Shown here piece by piece: positions 34,464-42,530 of a stretch of 64,000 nt of DNA (position 1 is the first letter of the stretch; the number at the start of each line of letters is the position of its first letter). Under the pieces are notes generated by a model, which made no database searches, was not told the origin of the DNA, and saw only the letters and a list, made by a program, of their open reading frames with translations. Origin of the DNA: Candidatus Latescibacterota bacterium (GTDB lineage Bacteria > Latescibacterota > UBA2968); the NCBI GenBank assembly GCA_965204745.1, contig OZ242010.1, positions 4,192,001-4,256,000 of the forward strand. The letters are read 5' to 3'. A program made the translations under genes and the position numbers.

Positions 34464-36404
34464 TTAAAAATACAAACTGTGCCCTTGCCCTTGGAAGCAC
34501 AGGGCGTCGATGACAAAGGACGCGCCAGCCGCGGAAAAGTGCCCGACCACGAGGCCCACAAAAACGGGCTTGGCGCGGTTGTAGAGCATCAGGCCGCCGA
34601 AGCGGATCAGCAGCACTTTGATGGCCCAGGCCGCGAACAGGGACAACAACGTCCACTTCACTTGCCCCACAGAGGCGATAGAAAATCCAATGGGATGCAG
34701 GCGCCACCACGCGAACCGATGGCGGCAGTACGTCAGCAAAACCGTCACGAGCGCGCCCAAGGCCAAAAACGCGAAGTGCCCGAAGCGCAGGGTTTCTGCG
34801 GCTTTGATTTTCGCCACGACCGTATCAAAGGGCACTTGGCCGCCGCGCCGAAAAACCCATTCCCCAAAATTGTACGCGCCCGAGGCGTATGCCAGTTTGA
34901 GCGAAAAATAAAAGGACACCATCAAGCTGAGGGCCAGGGCCAAGCCCACGGCGGTGAGGTACGCGCCGCGCGGAAATCGCTGCTCGCTGTGGACGCGGGC
35001 CGCGTTCGCGCCAAAGGGCATAAATGTGGCGATGGGGTCGCACGCCCAGCCGTAGGACAGGCCGAGGCCGGTCATGGTCGCGGCCGTCAAATTCGCCGGG
35101 CCGACGAGGTGCATCGCGTACGCCTGCGGCACGAGCGGGCCGCGCACGAACACCAGCCCGCCTTCGATGACGATGCGCGTGAGGCCCAAATAAAGCGTGA
35201 CAACCGCAAAGAGCAACAGCGAAGCCACGCCCGGCTGGATCCCGATGCGCGTCAGCCAGAACAAAATGTAGAGCGCGCCGAGCGCGATGCCGAGCAGGGC
35301 CGCGCGATAGCCCATGATTTCCTCGCGGTCAGACGCGCCGTCGGCCTTGCCCCGTGCGGTTCGCCACACCCCGCGCAGATGTTCGCGCGCGACCCATATC
35401 CCGCCCATCACGACCGCGACAAAGGCCCCGAACCCCTGCCAGGCCAATGCGGCCGGGCTGACCGAATACACTTCGGACGTGCCGATAGTGAACCCCGTGC
35501 GGTTGAACAGCGCGACCTCGGCCATGTTGAACAGGTTGAAAAACCACACGCTGAAAATCACATCCACATTCACAAAATACGTGATGCCCACCAACGGCAG
35601 GGACAAGTTGGTCGAAATCCCCGGCCAGACCTGCCCGCCCAGGAGGTTCAAGCGGAGGGCCGGGATAGTGGGCCAGCCCTCAAAAAAGTAGCCCGGCACG
35701 TTCCACGCGATTTTGCCCGCGGCAATGCCAAAGCCGATCCAGAACAAGCGACTCCGCATGAATTGCGGTAGCAGGCGATCCTCACCTGCGCCCACCATCA
35801 TCATCAACGGGACGTCGACCAGCGGAAAATTGAGGCGTTCTTTGTCCTCCCACTGCTTGCGAAAAACCGCGATGAGACACGTACAAAGCGTCATGGTGGC
35901 GACGATGACGGACCCCCACCAGAACAGGGGCATGACCCACACGCGCCAGGGGATTTGCGCGCCCGGGGGCAGGCCCTCGAAAAACCACGCCACTTCGCGG
36001 CCTTCGCCGGGCACGGCCCACAAGGGTACATGGCTGTGGATGAACTCGGCCCATCCATTTTCGGTCGTGGCAAAATAAAAGGGCGACGCGGCTACGGAAA
36101 TCACGTAGCCGGTCGCCCCATACGTGGGCACGGATACCGCGACCAACAGCATCATATAGACCACGCCCAACTCATCGCCGGTCAGGCCGCCGCCGCGCTT
36201 TACAGCTTTCAAGATCGGATTGAGCACCACGACGACGAGGATGAACAACGCGGCCAAGCCCAACGGAAAATAATTGGTGGTCAACAGGGTGGATCGCACG
36301 ATCCATTCGGAATACGGCGCCAACAGATTCACCGCAACGACGACGAGAACGCCAATGCCCAATGCCTTTGGCGTGAGGACGGCCGCGGGCGGGGTTTCTG
36401 ACAT
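34464..36404 (-). CDS. Polytopic membrane protein (DUF6785/DUF6784-like)
   Basis: Many TM segments; motifs RKQW...ERL.FPL, WW.LHPIG, K....RFGG..LY....P.F.GL..G; start codon uncertain. Confidence 0.7.
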   Translation of the reverse strand: MSETPPAAVLTPKALGIGVLVVVAVNLLAPYSEWIVRSTLLTTNYFPLGLAALFILVVVVLNPILKAVKRGGGLTGDELGVVYMMLLVAVSVPTYGATGYVISVAASPFYFATTENGWAEFIHSHVPLWAVPGEGREVAWFFEGLPPGAQIPWRVWVMPLFWWGSVIVATMTLCTCLIAVFRKQWEDKERLNFPLVDVPLMMMVGAGEDRLLPQFMRSRLFWIGFGIAAGKIAWNVPGYFFEGWPTIPALRLNLLGGQVWPGISTNLSLPLVGITYFVNVDVIFSVWFFNLFNMAEVALFNRTGFTIGTSEVYSVSPAALAWQGFGAFVAVVMGGIWVAREHLRGVWRTARGKADGASDREEIMGYRAALLGIALGALYILFWLTRIGIQPGVASLLLFAVVTLYLGLTRIVIEGGLVFVRGPLVPQAYAMHLVGPANLTAATMTGLGLSYGWACDPIATFMPFGANAARVHSEQRFPRGAYLTAVGLALALSLMVSFYFSLKLAYASGAYNFGEWVFRRGGQVPFDTVVAKIKAAETLRFGHFAFLALGALVTVLLTYCRHRFAWWRLHPIGFSIASVGQVKWTLLSLFAAWAIKVLLIRFGGLMLYNRAKPVFVGLVVGHFSAAGASFVIDALCFQGQGHSLYF

Positions 36405-36655
36405 GGTGCGTTGAATGGATTGTACCACGATGGGATTCTCGGAGTGATTAAGACGGGAGGGGGTTAGCCACAAAAGGCACGAGCGGGGTACAACTGGCGA
36501 TAGCCAGTTCAAAGGCACAAAAGGCGAGCAGGATGTGTAGGGGCGATGCCCCTGTGCTCGCCCTAAGATACAAGGGGAATGGCGAGAGGTGAGAGGCGAG
36601 AGGTGAGGCAACCCCGCCCATCCGCTCCCTTCAGGTAAGATACTCTCTTAAAAGG

Positions 36656-37663
36656 TCAAGGGGTTTTCGGGGTGATTCGATAGAATTTTTCGCCCTCAAA
36701 ATCTTGGTCATGGCGCAACATGCCCCAGATCGAATGGAGCAACTTTCGCATCACCGCAACGATAGCCTGCAAAGGTTTCTTGCCGCGGGCGATGAGTTGG
36801 TCATAGAAGGCTTTGACATGGCCTTCGTGTCTGATGGCCACCCAGGCAGGCATATAGAGGGCATGGCGGAGGTACTTATTCCCGGTTTTCGAGATGCGTC
36901 TTTGTGGATTGGCGGTTCCGGATTGTTTGGGTTTGGGATCCAGGCCTGCATGTGCGACCCACTGGGGCGGTTGCATCTCCTCTGGCAAAAGGGTCAACTC
37001 GGCCAAGAGCCGCAAGGCACTCGTTTGCGCGATGCCAGGCGTCGAGCAGAGGCGTTGGTAGGCACGCTTGAGGGGCTCATCGTGCAAAACGAGATCGAGG
37101 GCTTGGCTTTCCAAGTATGCAATCCGGCGTTTGAAGTGTCGAATATTCACCTGAATATCGCGTGCGATGAGACGTGTGCTGCGGATGTGGTAGCTCTGCG
37201 CGTGGTTGCGGCTCTGTTCGCGGATGATCTCCTGCTTGAGTTGGTCAATGCGTCTGGTGAGGGCTTGCAGTTGAAGCCGTTGCTCGCTCGGCGCTTGCCA
37301 AGGCACAAAAGGCATGCGCTCGGCATAGTCGAGGATCAACAACGCATCCTTCGCATCCGTCTTCGCCCGTTGCATGCAGGCTTGGGCGTACTTGCTCATC
37401 GCTTTGGGATTGACGACCATGACCTTTGTGTGGCGATGCCGATGCAAGGCCAAGGCCACCCCCAAACTGTAAAGCCCGGTCGCTTCGAGGCACACAGAGA
37501 CCATGTGCCCGCCCTTCGTGAGCCACTTCAGCAACCGCTTATGCGCTTGGGGATCATTGGCAAAGGTCGCTTGCATGACAGCTTGTCCGGGTCTGGACAG
37601 GGCAACGGACAACGTGCGGGCACTGACATCAATGCCGGCAAAAGCGGGGTGAGATTTCGACAT
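36656..37663 (-). CDS. IS110 family transposase/bridge recombinase
   Basis: Protein identical to that of 2175-3182. Confidence 0.95.
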   Translation of the reverse strand: MSKSHPAFAGIDVSARTLSVALSRPGQAVMQATFANDPQAHKRLLKWLTKGGHMVSVCLEATGLYSLGVALALHRHRHTKVMVVNPKAMSKYAQACMQRAKTDAKDALLILDYAERMPFVPWQAPSEQRLQLQALTRRIDQLKQEIIREQSRNHAQSYHIRSTRLIARDIQVNIRHFKRRIAYLESQALDLVLHDEPLKRAYQRLCSTPGIAQTSALRLLAELTLLPEEMQPPQWVAHAGLDPKPKQSGTANPQRRISKTGNKYLRHALYMPAWVAIRHEGHVKAFYDQLIARGKKPLQAIVAVMRKLLHSIWGMLRHDQDFEGEKFYRITPKTP

Positions 37664-37737
37664 GGGGGCCTCCTGTGATGAGGGGGTTGTAAGGGATCTG
37701 GTGCGCGCTCGGGGTCGCGTCCCGACCATTGACGCCA

Positions 37738-37918
37738 AGTCTACCGGTCTTGTATATGCAGCCTCAAGGGGCTTAGATACTCTTCGGCATAGACCCGGCG
37801 GTCGGGGGGCCTATCTTACCTACAAGGTCATCGCCTTCAAGAGGGGCCGGCCTTCCCCGAGCCGGGCATCAAGATGGCTTATCTCGATACGAGGGCGCAA
37901 CTCCTAATTAACCCTTAC
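37738..37918 (-). ncRNA. IS110 bridge RNA, copy 2
   Basis: Reverse complement of 1920-2100. Confidence 0.85.
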
Positions 37919-38006
37919 TTCCAAGATACAAGAGGGGAGACGTAAGATGCAATTTTAGCCACAAGCCAGGGACAGGGTCTCTGGCTCTTTTTGTGTCATT
38001 TCCGCT

Positions 38007-38190
38007 CCTTCAAATCATAACATCTTGTAACAAATCGTAACAAATCGCACATGTTACGTGAATGCGAAAGAAAGTTGATTTGATAGACGCTTCACAGGGC
38101 GTGCGTCCACGCGCTTACAACCTCGTGTCCGTCTTACAGCACCTCCACGTCCGTTTAGCGACTCGGCAGGGCTTGCCGCGTCGTAGTGTT
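38007..38190 (-). ncRNA. Putative omegaRNA scaffold overlapping the tnpB 3' end and right end; guide would be the flank starting at 38006
   Basis: Positional inference from TnpB biology; hairpin-rich sequence after the NAAINL codons; 5' end approximate. Confidence 0.5.
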
Positions 38191-39283
38191 TCAAATTGAT
38201 GGCCGCGTTCAAATCGCGGTTGAGGACGAGACCGCAAGACAAGCAGACATAGTCGCGCTGTGATAAATCCATAGCGACTTTGCGTTGTCCACAGCCTGAG
38301 CATGTCTTTGTGCTGGCAAACCACCGGTCGGCTTTTTCAAAAGCCACGCCAGACCATTGGCACTTGTATTCAAGCATGCGAAGGAATCCGCTGATACCTG
38401 CGCGGTGGAACGCACGCGACAGGCTCTTGTTGCGGCGCATACCAGCAACATTCAGCGTCTCGACAATCACCTTGCCAACGGTCGTCGCTTTGACAATCGC
38501 GGAAGTGGCTTTGTGGTGAACATCGTCGCGGATGTTGGTGATGCGCCCAAAGATGCGCTGTCGTTGGTCATACAAGCGTTGCCTGCGGTTACTGCGTTGG
38601 TTCTTGCCATGCGTGTTCTTTGACCGCGCAAGGGCTTTGTCCACACGGCGCAACTTGCGATACTGCGTATCTATCGCGCCCTTGGGATTGTCTATCGTCG
38701 TGCCATCCGAATAGGTTGCCAGCGTTTTCAATCCCATGTCGATGCCGATGGTTTCTCCGTCGCGTTTATCGGGCGGCTCCTGTCCTGTATCGACAGACAA
38801 GCAGACAAACCATCGGCCATGCGTCTTGGTTACGGTGGCTTTGACAATCGCGCCATTAAACCGCAGACGCTCGGCCATCTTGACCCAGCCAATTTTGGGC
38901 AGAAAGACCTTTTTGCCATCCACCTTGACCGTACCGGGCCCGTTATCGGCTTGATACGCACGCTTGCCAGAACGCTTGCGGTGTGTCGGGAAGCGCACGC
39001 GCAGTTTCTTGTTTCGCCAGTTCTTGATGGCTCTGTCAAGGTCGTGGATGGCATTCTTGGATGCGTATTGTGACAACTCGCCAGACCATTCATACTCGGC
39101 CTTTTTGACCACATTGAACTCGCGCTTGAGCGTATAAAGCGACTTGAACACGCCTGTATCCAGGGCGGCCTTGAACGCATTGAGCGCGTGATTGTACACC
39201 ACACGCGCATAGCCACAATGCTTTGAAAACAGCGTTGCTTGGGCTTGCGGGTGCATCAGTGCAATTTTGTGCGTCTTGACCAT
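38054..39283 (-). CDS. tnpB: TnpB RNA-guided endonuclease
   Basis: HTH (G.ARVVYN.AL), LPKIGWVK, RuvC residues GIDMG / IVE.LNV / NRDLNAAINL, Zn finger CSGCG..CLSCG. Confidence 0.93.
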   Translation of the reverse strand: MVKTHKIALMHPQAQATLFSKHCGYARVVYNHALNAFKAALDTGVFKSLYTLKREFNVVKKAEYEWSGELSQYASKNAIHDLDRAIKNWRNKKLRVRFPTHRKRSGKRAYQADNGPGTVKVDGKKVFLPKIGWVKMAERLRFNGAIVKATVTKTHGRWFVCLSVDTGQEPPDKRDGETIGIDMGLKTLATYSDGTTIDNPKGAIDTQYRKLRRVDKALARSKNTHGKNQRSNRRQRLYDQRQRIFGRITNIRDDVHHKATSAIVKATTVGKVIVETLNVAGMRRNKSLSRAFHRAGISGFLRMLEYKCQWSGVAFEKADRWFASTKTCSGCGQRKVAMDLSQRDYVCLSCGLVLNRDLNAAINLKHYDAASPAESLNGRGGAVRRTRGCKRVDARPVKRLSNQLSFAFT

Positions 39284-39456
39284 TGACCTGTCCAATATAA
39301 AAATCCGCCGATGGTTGTATCCAAAGCAAGGCTTTGCCACCGGCGGAATCAAACAAATACAAAAATGGCCTTGCTTTTGGATACACACCTTAGACGACTA
39401 CAAACGACAAAAGATTCCACCTTTTTGTGCGATTTGTGATGATTTGTTACAAGATG

Positions 39457-39828
39457 TTATGATTTTACCGCACTGTTACTTACCCCTGCTGGCATGTCGC
39501 GCTTGTGAATGTATTCCTGCCTCGCCATCATCGTCAAAATGCCCACCAAAAGACTGAGCAATAGCACCAAGCCCGCGGGCATAAATTTGCGCGTGCGGAC
39601 AAACCGGCTCAGAAAAATGCCCGTGAGCAACAGCCCGACAAGCCCGCCGGTCAAAAATCCAATTTCGGGATCGCGCAGGCTTTGCCAGAAGCCGACCAGT
39701 GCGACAGCGCCGCTGACCGCACCTGCAAACAAAGAGGCAGAACTCCCGGTCTTCACCTTCCCAACGATGCCCCCCGCGATCAACAACGCGCCGTAAATCG
39801 CCAGTGCCACTTGTGCTGTTTCGATCAT
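39457..39828 (-). CDS. TMEM14 family small membrane protein
   Basis: Motifs YG.LLI.GGI.G.VK.GS..SL.AG and RF..TRKFMPAGL. Confidence 0.85.
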   Translation of the reverse strand: MIETAQVALAIYGALLIAGGIVGKVKTGSSASLFAGAVSGAVALVGFWQSLRDPEIGFLTGGLVGLLLTGIFLSRFVRTRKFMPAGLVLLLSLLVGILTMMARQEYIHKRDMPAGVSNSAVKS

Positions 39829-39869
39829 TTCATTCTCCAAAATAGCCACTGAAACAGTCGCGCCTTATC

Positions 39870-40225
39870 GGGACCTACCCCCCTAACCCCCGTTACTCGC
39901 TTCGCTTCGTTGTAGGCTACGCCTGTGCCTTAGAGGAAGGGGGAACAGTGAGCGGTTTTGCGAGGGGATTGATGAGGGATTTTCAATCGCTTTATGCCCT
40001 CGCAAAACGCCATCAAAACAACCAGAGCGAGAAGCCATCAAAGAAACTTTACTCCCCTTTCCTCGTAGGAAGGGGGAACAGTGAGCGGTTTTGCGAGGGG
40101 ATTGATGAGGGATATTTAATCGCTTTATGCCCTCGCAAAACGCCATCAAAACAACCAGAGCGAGAAGCCATCAAAGAAACTTTACTCCCCTTTCCTCGTA
40201 GGAAAGGGGCCGGGGGATAGGTCCC
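39870..40225. repeat. Family-A-related CCCC/GGGG hairpin repeat lacking TIRs, with an internal 133-bp tandem duplication (39934-40066, 40067-40199)
   Basis: Shares the GGGACCTACCCCCCTAACCCCC and GGAAAGGGGCCGGGGGATAGGTC ends with family A. Confidence 0.75.
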
Positions 40226-40340
40226 CTCACGCAACGCCATCAGAGCAACCTAAGCCATCAAATGACCAAACGCCTTAAATGAGCAAGAAGCAACACAGTT
40301 GCTACTCTGTGCGTGTGGTCAGTCCGCATGCCTCGCTTCC

Positions 40341-42530
40341 TTACACCATTTGCCCTTCTCGAATTTCCTGACCATAGACGCGCAGGGTTTGGCCGTTGAT
40401 GAGGGCGAGGGTTTCCACCCAGCCGTCGGTTAGGGTCATGGCGCCGGCTTCGGCGTCTGTTTCGCCTTCGGATGCGCGTAGCCAGCCCTCGCCTGCTTCG
40501 GATTGGATGAAGTAGATGTCTCGACCGTCTCGCAGGGCGATTCGCCCGGCGATGCCAAGGCGGTCGTTGTCGCCTGCGATGGGGATGTGTTCGATGTGGA
40601 TGATGGGCGATTCCTCGCCCGGTTTGACGGGGTACAAGATGTAGGTCATGGCGATGGGGCCGTGGCCCGTGGTTTTGAAAATCGCGGTTGGAATGGGTTC
40701 GCACTGATAGGGGCCGCCGCGGGGGATCCAGCCCTGGACGGTCGGTTCTTCTTGACCGCTGACGATGCGTGTGGTGATGGGCGCGGTCGCAAGGGCGCGA
40801 ATGTCCAGATCGCTCTGGTCAGGCCCGTTTTTTGTGATGACCTGCCGCCCATCTATTAAAACGTCTGCATCGTCCGCGTCGAGGTGGAACAGGGCTTCGT
40901 ACTCGTGGGCCGCGTCGTCCGAGGGTTTGAGGATGTCCGTGACGATCCAGAACTCGGGTTTGACGAACAGGATTGACCGCGTGTGCGAAACGGTCTCGTC
41001 CCGGTTTGGGCCGTATCCCAAGTCGTAGGTCGCGGACGCATAATCGCATTTATCATTTGATAGCCACGTATGCGGCAGGGGCTTGGACACCACGTAGTCC
41101 TCGCGGGATTTTCCGCGTTGGTTTTGCTCCATGCCATCCACCATCACCGTATTGTGGGCGCGGGTTGACAGCACGTACGCACGCCATTGGGACGAGTCGT
41201 AGGGATAATTCCCCGGATCGACCACATGCACGCGCCCATGTGCGTAGAGGACGATGTTCAACTTGTCCTCGTGCTGATGCCCATAGCCAAAGGGGCCGCC
41301 GTCGAAAAACAGATAGCGATCATCGGGGTGCCATCCCGAGCGCATGACAAAATGCCCGGCAAAGGGAAACGCGCAGGACAGGGTTTGCGGCTCTGTGCCC
41401 TCGGCGCGTGCAGACGCGACCCATTGGAAGTCCACGCGGTTGGGGAAAAACTTGAACCCGCCGCGCATGTAGGGCGCGATGTCGGTTTGGCCCCCGTCAT
41501 TGAGCGCGGGCAAGCGCAAGTCGGGCATGGCCAAATACAGGTCGTAGTGGTACATCCGCTCCAATTTGGCGACGTAATCCGCGGGCACGGGCAAGTCGTT
41601 CAAGTGCGCGATGGCATAGGCCATCACAAAATTTCGCAGGCTCACTTGATGGTAGCCGCTCGACAACTCGATCTGCGCGCCATCCGGATAGACCTGCGCG
41701 TCCAACTCCCCATAGAGCGAGTGCATCGCGAGTTCGCGCCATTGCGCGGCTTCTTTGAACTCGGGAAACAGCGCGCCGACATGGTATTGCCCATTGGCCT
41801 GCATGGTCTGCCAGTTGCCACCGCGCGGCCATTTCGTGAGGTGGCGCGCATGCTCGACCATGCTCTTTATCATCAAACACACGTCGTCATCCACAAAGGT
41901 TTTGGAGGACAGGAAGTAGTAAAACGCCGCGGGCCAGGTTTGCCCCATCCGAATCCCACATTCAATCGTGCGCCAGCAGTTGGTGCGGGCCGTGCCCATC
42001 TCGGCGTCGTCTTTCCAAGAATTGCCATCCTCATCGATGGGTACGAGCACATGGTCGATCCAGTGCCGCATTTGCCGCACAAACGCCTCGGCGTATTTTT
42101 CGTCGCCGGTTTTCCAATACGCCTGCCCCAGCGTGACCCAAAACGGATGGCGCGACAACTGCCATGTCCATTCCCGGTAATTGATCGGGTCCAGTTCCCA
42201 GTTGATCGCGTCGCCAAACGCTCGTGCCACGTCGCAACTCGTCAGCGTATTTGCCACGATGCGGTCCGCCTTTGCGAGATCGACATCCCGGATCGCGCGA
42301 TCTCCCACGCGCACGAGCTCGACCTCTGCATCCCGGTCTTGTGGCTCGGATCGATTTTGCCAGTCGGAAAACCACTTTGGATTTTTGCGCGTGCGGACGT
42401 GTTGGGCAAACGCGCGCCGCGCCCCGGCCCAATCCCGTTCCTCCACCGCCGCTTTGATCCCCGCCATATCCGTGCGCGACAAATCAAGCGCGTCAAAAAA
42501 CCCCGCATCGCTCAACCGCGGTCCCATCAT
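40341..42530 (-). CDS. Heparinase II/III family polysaccharide lyase
   Basis: Motifs NW, QVYPDG.Q.ELS.GYH, MRSGW, GHQHEDKL, DPG.YPY, AHNTV.VDG. Confidence 0.85.
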   Translation of the reverse strand: MMGPRLSDAGFFDALDLSRTDMAGIKAAVEERDWAGARRAFAQHVRTRKNPKWFSDWQNRSEPQDRDAEVELVRVGDRAIRDVDLAKADRIVANTLTSCDVARAFGDAINWELDPINYREWTWQLSRHPFWVTLGQAYWKTGDEKYAEAFVRQMRHWIDHVLVPIDEDGNSWKDDAEMGTARTNCWRTIECGIRMGQTWPAAFYYFLSSKTFVDDDVCLMIKSMVEHARHLTKWPRGGNWQTMQANGQYHVGALFPEFKEAAQWRELAMHSLYGELDAQVYPDGAQIELSSGYHQVSLRNFVMAYAIAHLNDLPVPADYVAKLERMYHYDLYLAMPDLRLPALNDGGQTDIAPYMRGGFKFFPNRVDFQWVASARAEGTEPQTLSCAFPFAGHFVMRSGWHPDDRYLFFDGGPFGYGHQHEDKLNIVLYAHGRVHVVDPGNYPYDSSQWRAYVLSTRAHNTVMVDGMEQNQRGKSREDYVVSKPLPHTWLSNDKCDYASATYDLGYGPNRDETVSHTRSILFVKPEFWIVTDILKPSDDAAHEYEALFHLDADDADVLIDGRQVITKNGPDQSDLDIRALATAPITTRIVSGQEEPTVQGWIPRGGPYQCEPIPTAIFKTTGHGPIAMTYILYPVKPGEESPIIHIEHIPIAGDNDRLGIAGRIALRDGRDIYFIQSEAGEGWLRASEGETDAEAGAMTLTDGWVETLALINGQTLRVYGQEIREGQMV

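Follow-up and report, generated by a model that had tools for sequence, protein, structure and literature searches.

A gene for the RNA-guided nuclease TnpB that stands alone between two long, almost perfectly inverted sequence arms raises the question to which transposon family such an element belongs and which transposase could have moved it. We addressed this question for an element on the minus strand of a 64,000 nt stretch of DNA from a Candidatus Latescibacterota bacterium (positions 4192001–4256000 of contig C1 of its genome, G000; hereafter the window). An initial annotation, made from the sequence alone, had proposed a non-autonomous IS607-type element. From comparison with further copies and with orthologous host loci we arrive at the same assignment, with different ends, and consider the element (copy A) very probably a non-autonomous, tnpA-less insertion sequence of the IS607 family which carries only TnpB. 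The GG dinucleotides that bound it, the repeated motifs within its ends, the lack of a target-site duplication and the serine transposase gene of its relative L022 all point in this direction.

Ends, target site and subterminal repeat

The boundaries were derived from ten aligned copies, read in the sense of tnpB. Besides copy A, seven reside in the same genome: three that likewise carry tnpB (B at 1.80 Mb, C at 5.32 Mb and D at 3.90 Mb) and are 79–84% identical to A over this gene and its 3' region, three TnpB-less mini-elements of 487–505 nt bearing a repeat of this type (M1 at 1.85 Mb, M2 at 1.36 Mb and M3 at 3.40 Mb), and a fourth TnpB-less mini-element (X1 at 4.34 Mb). The remaining two, L022 and L024, stem from a metagenome-assembled genome (MAG) of Latescibacteria, and L022 (chromosome OY282377.1, 1588740–1597972; complete element of 2,011 bp) is the nearest natural relative. 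Further copies, for which the initial annotation had suggested a search, thus exist and share common ends. All ten start with GG, followed by four nucleotides and TAAC(A/T)(G/T)T, and all ten terminate in (A/G)GAGC followed by GG, with flanks that are unrelated immediately outside; when the contig carrying M1 is aligned to the window, similarity ends exactly at 38002. Because conservation between copies runs past the repeat arms to the outer GG, the element comprises 38002–39484 and not 38007–39469 as first annotated, its true ends lying 5 and 15 nt further out. Its length amounts to 1,483 nt, or 1,481 nt when one GG is counted as target. A GG at both borders had also been reported, and minus-strand GG dinucleotides are indeed found at 38007–38008 and 39468–39469, but both are internal, while the core GG pairs are located at 38002–38003 and 39483–39484. 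The target tetranucleotide ending in the left core GG reads NGGG in every copy, namely GGGG (A, B, D, M1 and M3), AGGG (C, M2 and X1), CGGG (L022) or TGGG (L024), and the right end reads GCGG throughout. GG at both termini and in the target, a feature of the IS607 family, is thus present in 10 of 10 copies.

The insertion interrupts the 3' end of a host gene of the Tmemb_14 family, which has orthologues in all 21 genomes of the genus and whose open reading frame (ORF) now reads on to position 39457, inside the element. We modelled the empty site by script and compared it with 11 non-self orthologous loci: a junction of four G gave a gapless alignment in nine of them, junctions of two, three or five G in none. 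The four residues represent two flanking G and a single core GG, leaving no target-site duplication, and under this junction the reconstructed C-terminal tail of the host protein resembles that of its orthologues. A boundary consisting of the core GG followed by a G of the element could be ruled out, since the orthologous sites demand the four-G junction. The same single-GG rule brings the interrupted host ORF of L022 back into frame, as read by eye. Contigs from four studies bridge the insertion of copy A, at the left junction in four of four public runs and at the right in three of four; one of these runs is possibly the one from which the assembly was made. The contigs of the four runs contain no empty-site joint, which is weak evidence as contigs drop rare variants.

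Within these boundaries, 38012–38051 pairs with 39426–39465 as a 40-nt inverted repeat with 38 of 40 positions (95%) complementary, reproducing the coordinates and the score given in the initial annotation. The runner-up among six listed inverted pairs in 37500–40000 spans 24 nt at 79%, and the highest score of an ungapped inverted repeat, 34, stands against a mean of 12.9 (standard deviation 1.9, maximum 18) in 60 dinucleotide shuffles of this region, so that the repeat is real and far above chance expectation. The ~10-bp periodic sub-repeats described initially were recovered by Tandem Repeats Finder with a period of 10 in both arms (38011–38047 with 3.7 copies, 39424–39447 with 2.5 copies). 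By likeness to the element IS1535, we infer that the arms are candidate binding sites of the transposase TnpA. They lie inside the core GG, at a distance of 8 nt at the right and 17 nt at the left end, and in the ten-copy alignment the outermost bases of one end do not mirror those of the other as an inverted copy. The designation as an unusually long terminal inverted repeat (TIR) therefore had to be given up: the repeat does not reach the termini, and inverted repeats in such a subterminal position, often imperfect, at unequal distance from the two ends and accompanied by phased motifs, are described for IS607 and IS1535 by Chen et al. (2018, eLife, PMC6188088), together with GG termini, GG targets and insertion without duplication. 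The arms fit this description, but with 38 of 40 matching positions they are unusually clean and stand at the long, clean end of the known range. In the sister elements, the best match between left and right end is 34 of 41 positions in M2, 32 of 41 in M1 and 12 of 14 in B, and comprises only 8 nt in M3 and 6 nt in X1. Since B, M3 and X1 have the same termini with short repeats or none, the long repeat is not required in this lineage.

These observations bear on the alternative of a DDE-type transposon with TIRs, or a miniature inverted-repeat transposable element, that carries tnpB as cargo and uses the 40-bp repeat as its true TIR. While the length and cleanness of the repeat and the occurrence of short derivatives would suit such an element, the copies are conserved for 10 nt at the right and 19 nt at the left past the repeat, core GG included, the empty-site comparison is free of duplication and sisters with the same termini do without the long repeat, which leaves this origin hardly credible. 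The initial annotation had named copies ending at other positions, or duplications indicative of a DDE partner, as arguments against its own proposal; the copies do end elsewhere than at its borders, but neither duplications nor a sign of a DDE partner were found.

Family assignment and transposase partner

As annotated before, the element lacks tnpA: the ORF listing contains no such gene within 38002–39484, and tnpB is the sole long ORF (ATG at 39283, stop at 38054). With no serine transposase gene inside, it has to be considered a derivative of an IS607 element and not a complete member of the family. The non-autonomous IS607-type assignment is supported by the NGGG target and the GCGG end of all ten copies, as in the CboIStron of Clostridium botulinum. 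In addition, the gene directly upstream of tnpB in L022, whose TnpB is 71% identical to that of copy A, matches the model transpos_IS607 (NF033518) at positions 2–98 and 102–187, in two frames. A TnpB scan of genome contigs returned 39 loci, three of them close (71–72%) and all from one MAG, with the next best at no more than ~46% over parts of the protein, and among 59 loci from metagenome contigs none was more than 38% identical across most of the protein length. Upstream of tnpB, 4 of the 98 related loci fetched matched a serine transposase. Two loci of the Latescibacteria MAG carry disruptions of their own: the tnpB of L024 is interrupted by an insert of ~110 nt (L024:4225–4345), and L023 (3900–4000) is 5'-truncated at apparently the same kind of insert.

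A TnpB-only element could also belong to the IS200/IS605 type (IS1341-like) and be moved by a Y1 transposase via single-stranded hairpin ends. The prototype of this family, ISDra2, combines a Y1 transposase and hairpin ends with the transposon-associated motif (TAM) TTGAT, and its TnpB is the best solved relative of the protein studied here. Other TnpB elements in the same genome possess hairpin-like ends, and the protein scores higher on the model IS200_TnpB (244.5 bits, cut-off 425) than on IS607_TnpB (NF038280; 217.6 bits, cut-off 350), both values lying below the respective cut-off. However, a scan of the genome of copy A (97.65% complete) gave no match to the Y1 transposase family PF01797, and neither hairpin ends nor a TTAC- or TTGAT-like target were found; instead, the ends of copy A are direct 10-bp arrays bounded by GG, and each of the ten copies has NGGG as its target. 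Taking the serine transposase gene of L022, the nearest full-length relative, into account, we regard an IS200/IS605 origin as very improbable.

For an element assigned to IS607, a serine transposase acting in trans had been proposed as partner, and the genome indeed contains six resolvase-domain matches, all of which are IS607-type tnpA genes of ~200 codons followed by a TnpB-like orfB (L016–L021, near 210494, 3134478, 2876228, 1989429, 4364223 and 4119935 of C1). The tnpA of one of them, S3, reaches 170 bits on NF033518, for which the cut-off is 110. Three of the six are interrupted by an internal stop codon and three are not. The ends of these resident elements, however, are unrelated to those of copy A, with a core of AG instead of GG at both ends by eye, and none of the six tnpA genes adjoins copy A, B, C or D. 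We therefore set the resident transposases aside as partners, given that the ends differ as judged by eye. It could still be argued that one of them keeps the element mobile in trans, since three tnpA genes are free of internal stops, the scanned S3 exceeds the cut-off, and the A-type ends found on four elements (A and M1–M3) imply mobilisation at some time. This spread must be old, though, with M1–M3 being 75–90% identical to one another, the subterminal motifs and termini of the resident elements are of unrelated sequence and their crossover appears, by eye, to be at AG, and contigs of the four runs contain no empty site, the latter carrying little weight for the reason given above. Present-day mobility by a resident transposase thus appears improbable. 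As no transposase gene was found next to matching ends in the genome, the element rather looks stranded at present.

Several observations weigh against the IS607 assignment itself. No tnpA with matching ends was found in the genome of copy A; tblastn searches with the two TnpA halves of L022 returned only the six resident loci, whose proteins are merely 33–43% identical to these halves. L022 may itself be defective, because its tnpA is split over two frames. In a search for the A-type left-end DNA across 41 genomes, the repeat was present only in the genome of copy A, with two matches to the leader part in G018, a member of the genus, and a 26-nt match in G036. From the protein alone TnpB is not assignable to a family: IS607_TnpB stays below its cut-off and below IS200_TnpB, a shortfall that says little since NF038280 is a narrow "exception" model. 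Neither the 3' region nor the leader could be named, as there was no Rfam match (E up to 1) in 36000–41000 of the window or in six related loci. The 38/40 repeat is likewise atypical, because PMC9956272 denies the family subterminal inverted repeats, and sisters with the same termini show that it is not a constant feature of these elements.

TnpB, predicted guide RNA and proposed mechanism

The nuclease gene is intact. Its product of 409 residues matches the Pfam families OrfB_IS605, Cas12f1-like_TNB and HTH_OrfB, scores 255.9 bits on the NCBIfam model guided_TnpB (cut-off 100) and aligns over its full length with ISDra2 TnpB (8h1j_A, E 1e-43), with IGIDMG, VIVETLN and NRDLNAAIN opposite the counterpart motifs. 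The initial annotation of an intact RuvC D-E-D triad is thereby confirmed at the level of the three motifs, within which we take the D, E and D to be the catalytic residues. Towards copies B, C and D, the ratio of nonsynonymous to synonymous substitution rates (dN/dS) is 0.15–0.16 at dS 0.58–0.84, and tnpB is under purifying selection.

Between the end of tnpB and the right terminus, a stretch of ~180 nt shows conservation across 11 copies, among them the four mini-elements without TnpB, and is predicted to encode the scaffold of the guide RNA (omega-RNA). Several hairpins of this stretch retain pairing while their sequence changes, up to a hairpin that is wholly different between M1 and M2, which are 90% identical overall. 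A variable transposase-motif array separates the conserved RNA core from the last ~13 nt. Since the right border of the initial annotation was 5 nt from the true end, its TAM and guide were misregistered. The TAM had been predicted to end in GCGG or GG and the guide to start with AGCGG, but the right end of all ten copies closes with GCGG. Judged from the copy boundary, the guide is predicted to begin where the copies diverge, directly past the right end, with AAATGACAC, read from 38001 downward on the minus strand. As candidate TAM we propose the NGGG of the left flank, which would be GGGG (39483–39486) in the empty site of copy A. The invariant GCGG of the right end, in analogy to CboIStron, is then taken as the predicted non-cleaved "self" sequence.

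We propose a model in which a serine transposase, supplied in trans, would bind the helically phased 10-bp arrays in both repeat arms and exchange strands at the GG closing each end, leading via a circular intermediate to insertion at a target GG without duplication. The retained element would express its active-looking TnpB together with a 3' omega-RNA, with the scaffold ending in GAGCGG and the guide taken from host DNA past the right end. Upon excision, the TnpB-RNA complex could cut the rejoined empty site, which offers GGGG followed by the guide match, and recombination would restore the element. The occupied site, with GCGG in this position, would escape cleavage.

Leader, mosaic ends and relation to known systems

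Copy A contains ~130 nt that are missing from B, C and D, most of which correspond to a structured leader of ~116 nt directly upstream of the tnpB start codon. The leader is absent from B, C and D and present in A, M1–M3, X1 and X4. It was also found directly upstream of a different TnpB family (~30% identical, N-terminus MGYxTxKFK, hairpin-like ends), represented by X2 at 4.48 Mb, two loci in G018 and the truncated copies Y1 and X3. Outside the window, the leader is located at 1853522, 1356213, 3401482, 4339350, 4479827, 2052576, 483282 and 91589 of the genome of copy A and in L145 and L149. Ten copies support a structure of two interleaved helices and a U-run behind them, in which 91.6% of cells are paired compared to 29–49% with partners slid, 9 of 27 pairs are changed on both sides, and each of five measures was reached by no more than 1 of 500 shuffles, figures that overstate independence because the copies are related. 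G-U pairs appear only when the leader is read in the sense of tnpB. A covariance model of the leader (R1) matched 11 places in the genome, eight of them training copies, and among 151 genomes of the phylum four had matches, this genome included and two being other members of the genus. Outside three genomes of the genus the leader is nearly absent. Our guess is that it functions as a terminator or attenuator which shields tnpB or tunes its expression. Such a role would resemble that of the left end of IS200. A scan for promoters of sigma-70 type gave five sites compared to 1.5 expected; one of them lies between the leader and the tnpB start codon but was not used as promoter annotation, since by eye it is not conserved in the other copies.

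The ends of the sister elements are mosaic. Copies B, C and D share termini and TnpB-RNA core with A but bear another type of subterminal motif, which is also found in L022, and the left end of X1 displays a third type. The four mini-elements keep both ends, the leader and a guide-RNA scaffold with compensatory changes, and could possibly be guide-only derivatives relying on TnpB made elsewhere. A more far-reaching and rather doubtful idea is that IS607-type parts are exchanged as cassettes, with one TnpB-RNA core and fixed GG-proximal termini combined with at least three arrays (A and M1–M3; B, C, D and L022; X1), copy A having additionally gained a leader that is otherwise a part of an unrelated TnpB family with hairpin ends, the leader being a new cis-regulatory RNA (attenuator or insulator) for TnpB expression and the mini-elements supplying working guides to TnpB made elsewhere. 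If the leader is regulatory and the mini-elements do supply guides, the genome would hold a small network of guide-only parasites with swappable control and mobility modules.

The coordinates of all features are collected in Table 1. Downstream of copy A, an IS110-family DEDD transposase gene occupies 36656–37738 on the minus strand; its upstream non-coding end, from 37739 to ~37955, abuts the host terminator hairpin and lies ~45 nt beyond the predicted guide region, and orthologous loci diverge from the window past this hairpin. On the other side, a dispersed repeat of ~50 nt at 39848–39900 has more than 30 matches of 91–98% identity in the same genome and shorter ones in several genomes of the genus.

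Table 1. Coordinates of copy A and associated features (window positions unless stated otherwise;., no strand assigned)
Feature	Position	Strand	Basis
Whole element, right core GG to left core GG	38002–39484	-	Ten-copy alignment and orthologous empty sites
Right-end core GG, last bases of GAGCGG	38002–38003	-	GCGG in 10/10 copies, flanks diverge directly after
Left-end core GG (39483–39484) and two flanking target G (39485–39486)	39483–39486	-	NGGG in 10/10 copies
Right-end subterminal arm, about four 10-bp motifs	38012–38051	.	Repeat search, Tandem Repeats Finder
Left-end subterminal arm, 10-bp motif array	39426–39465	.	Repeat search, Tandem Repeats Finder
tnpB coding sequence, intact, 409 aa and stop	38054–39283	-	ORF, Pfam, NCBIfam, structure alignment, dN/dS
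Predicted omega-RNA scaffold, overlapping the 3' end of tnpB, to right terminus	38002–38182	-	Conserved in 11 copies, hairpins keep pairing
Predicted guide template, host DNA directly after right end, starting AAATGACAC	37982–38001	-	Right-end boundary and known TnpB mechanism
Structured leader (two interleaved helices, then a U-run)	39298–39413	-	Covariation and covariance-model matches
Host gene of the Tmemb_14 family, 3' end interrupted by the element	39485–39849	-	ORF list, Pfam
Four TnpB-less mini-elements, 485–505 nt	C1: 1853220–1853706, 1355911–1356397, 3401166–3401670, 4339237–4339721		

Current understanding of IS607 and TnpB elements is not overturned by these data, the most notable aspects being the cassette-like exchange of ends and the shared leader. 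Copy A represents a clean natural case of IS607 ends, in which phased motif arrays and a GG crossover go together with insertion free of duplication, and it shows that a description of the family as devoid of inverted repeats is too strict. With the ends defined precisely and both the TAM (NGGG, GCGG being spared) and the guide start predicted, the compact 409-residue TnpB is ready for a cleavage assay. The mosaic ends and the shared leader further suggest that binding arrays, leaders and nuclease-RNA cores are reshuffled between elements, which bears on how TnpB lineages switch transposase partners.

Among characterised systems, the closest parallels at the level of the ends are offered by CboIStron, an IS607-family element for which a preprint (bioRxiv 10.1101/2023.11.20.567912) reports transposase-mediated insertion at TGGG with strict requirement for GG, a TnpB TAM of TGGG, a scaffold ending in UCGG (right end TCGG) and position -3 as the base separating the empty from the occupied site. 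Copy A shares with it the GG core at both ends, a target ending in GGG, a right end of (N)CGG that differs at position -3, the lack of a target duplication and the combination of TnpB with a 3' guide RNA, which is predicted in our case. In contrast to CboIStron, copy A has neither a group I intron nor tnpA and its TAM is a prediction; its TnpB is probably only distantly related to CboTnpB. It further features a near-perfect inverted repeat of 40 nt, whereas IS607 ends are said, in the same preprint, to lack inverted repeats. The architecture of the arms is reminiscent of IS1535, in which four helically phased 9-bp motifs, 20–60 bp from the left end, nucleate cooperative transposase binding according to PMC6188088: phased arrays of short motifs (period 10 here), GG termini and an unequally inset subterminal repeat are common to both, while the arms of copy A are, at ~40 nt and 38/40 identity, unlike those described there, and TnpA binding would follow by analogy. 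With L022, copy A shares the outermost bases at the left and right, a GG-bounded insertion whose removal restores the frame of the host ORF and the conserved omega-RNA-like region; unlike copy A, L022 has tnpA, split over two frames, and subterminal motifs of the B/C/D type, and it lacks the leader module. At the protein level, finally, TnpB resembles ISDra2 TnpB (PDB 8h1j, 8bf8 and 8exa) in its RuvC motifs, in its zinc-finger cysteines and in a C-terminal tail whose coding sequence overlaps that of the guide RNA, the latter being predicted for copy A.

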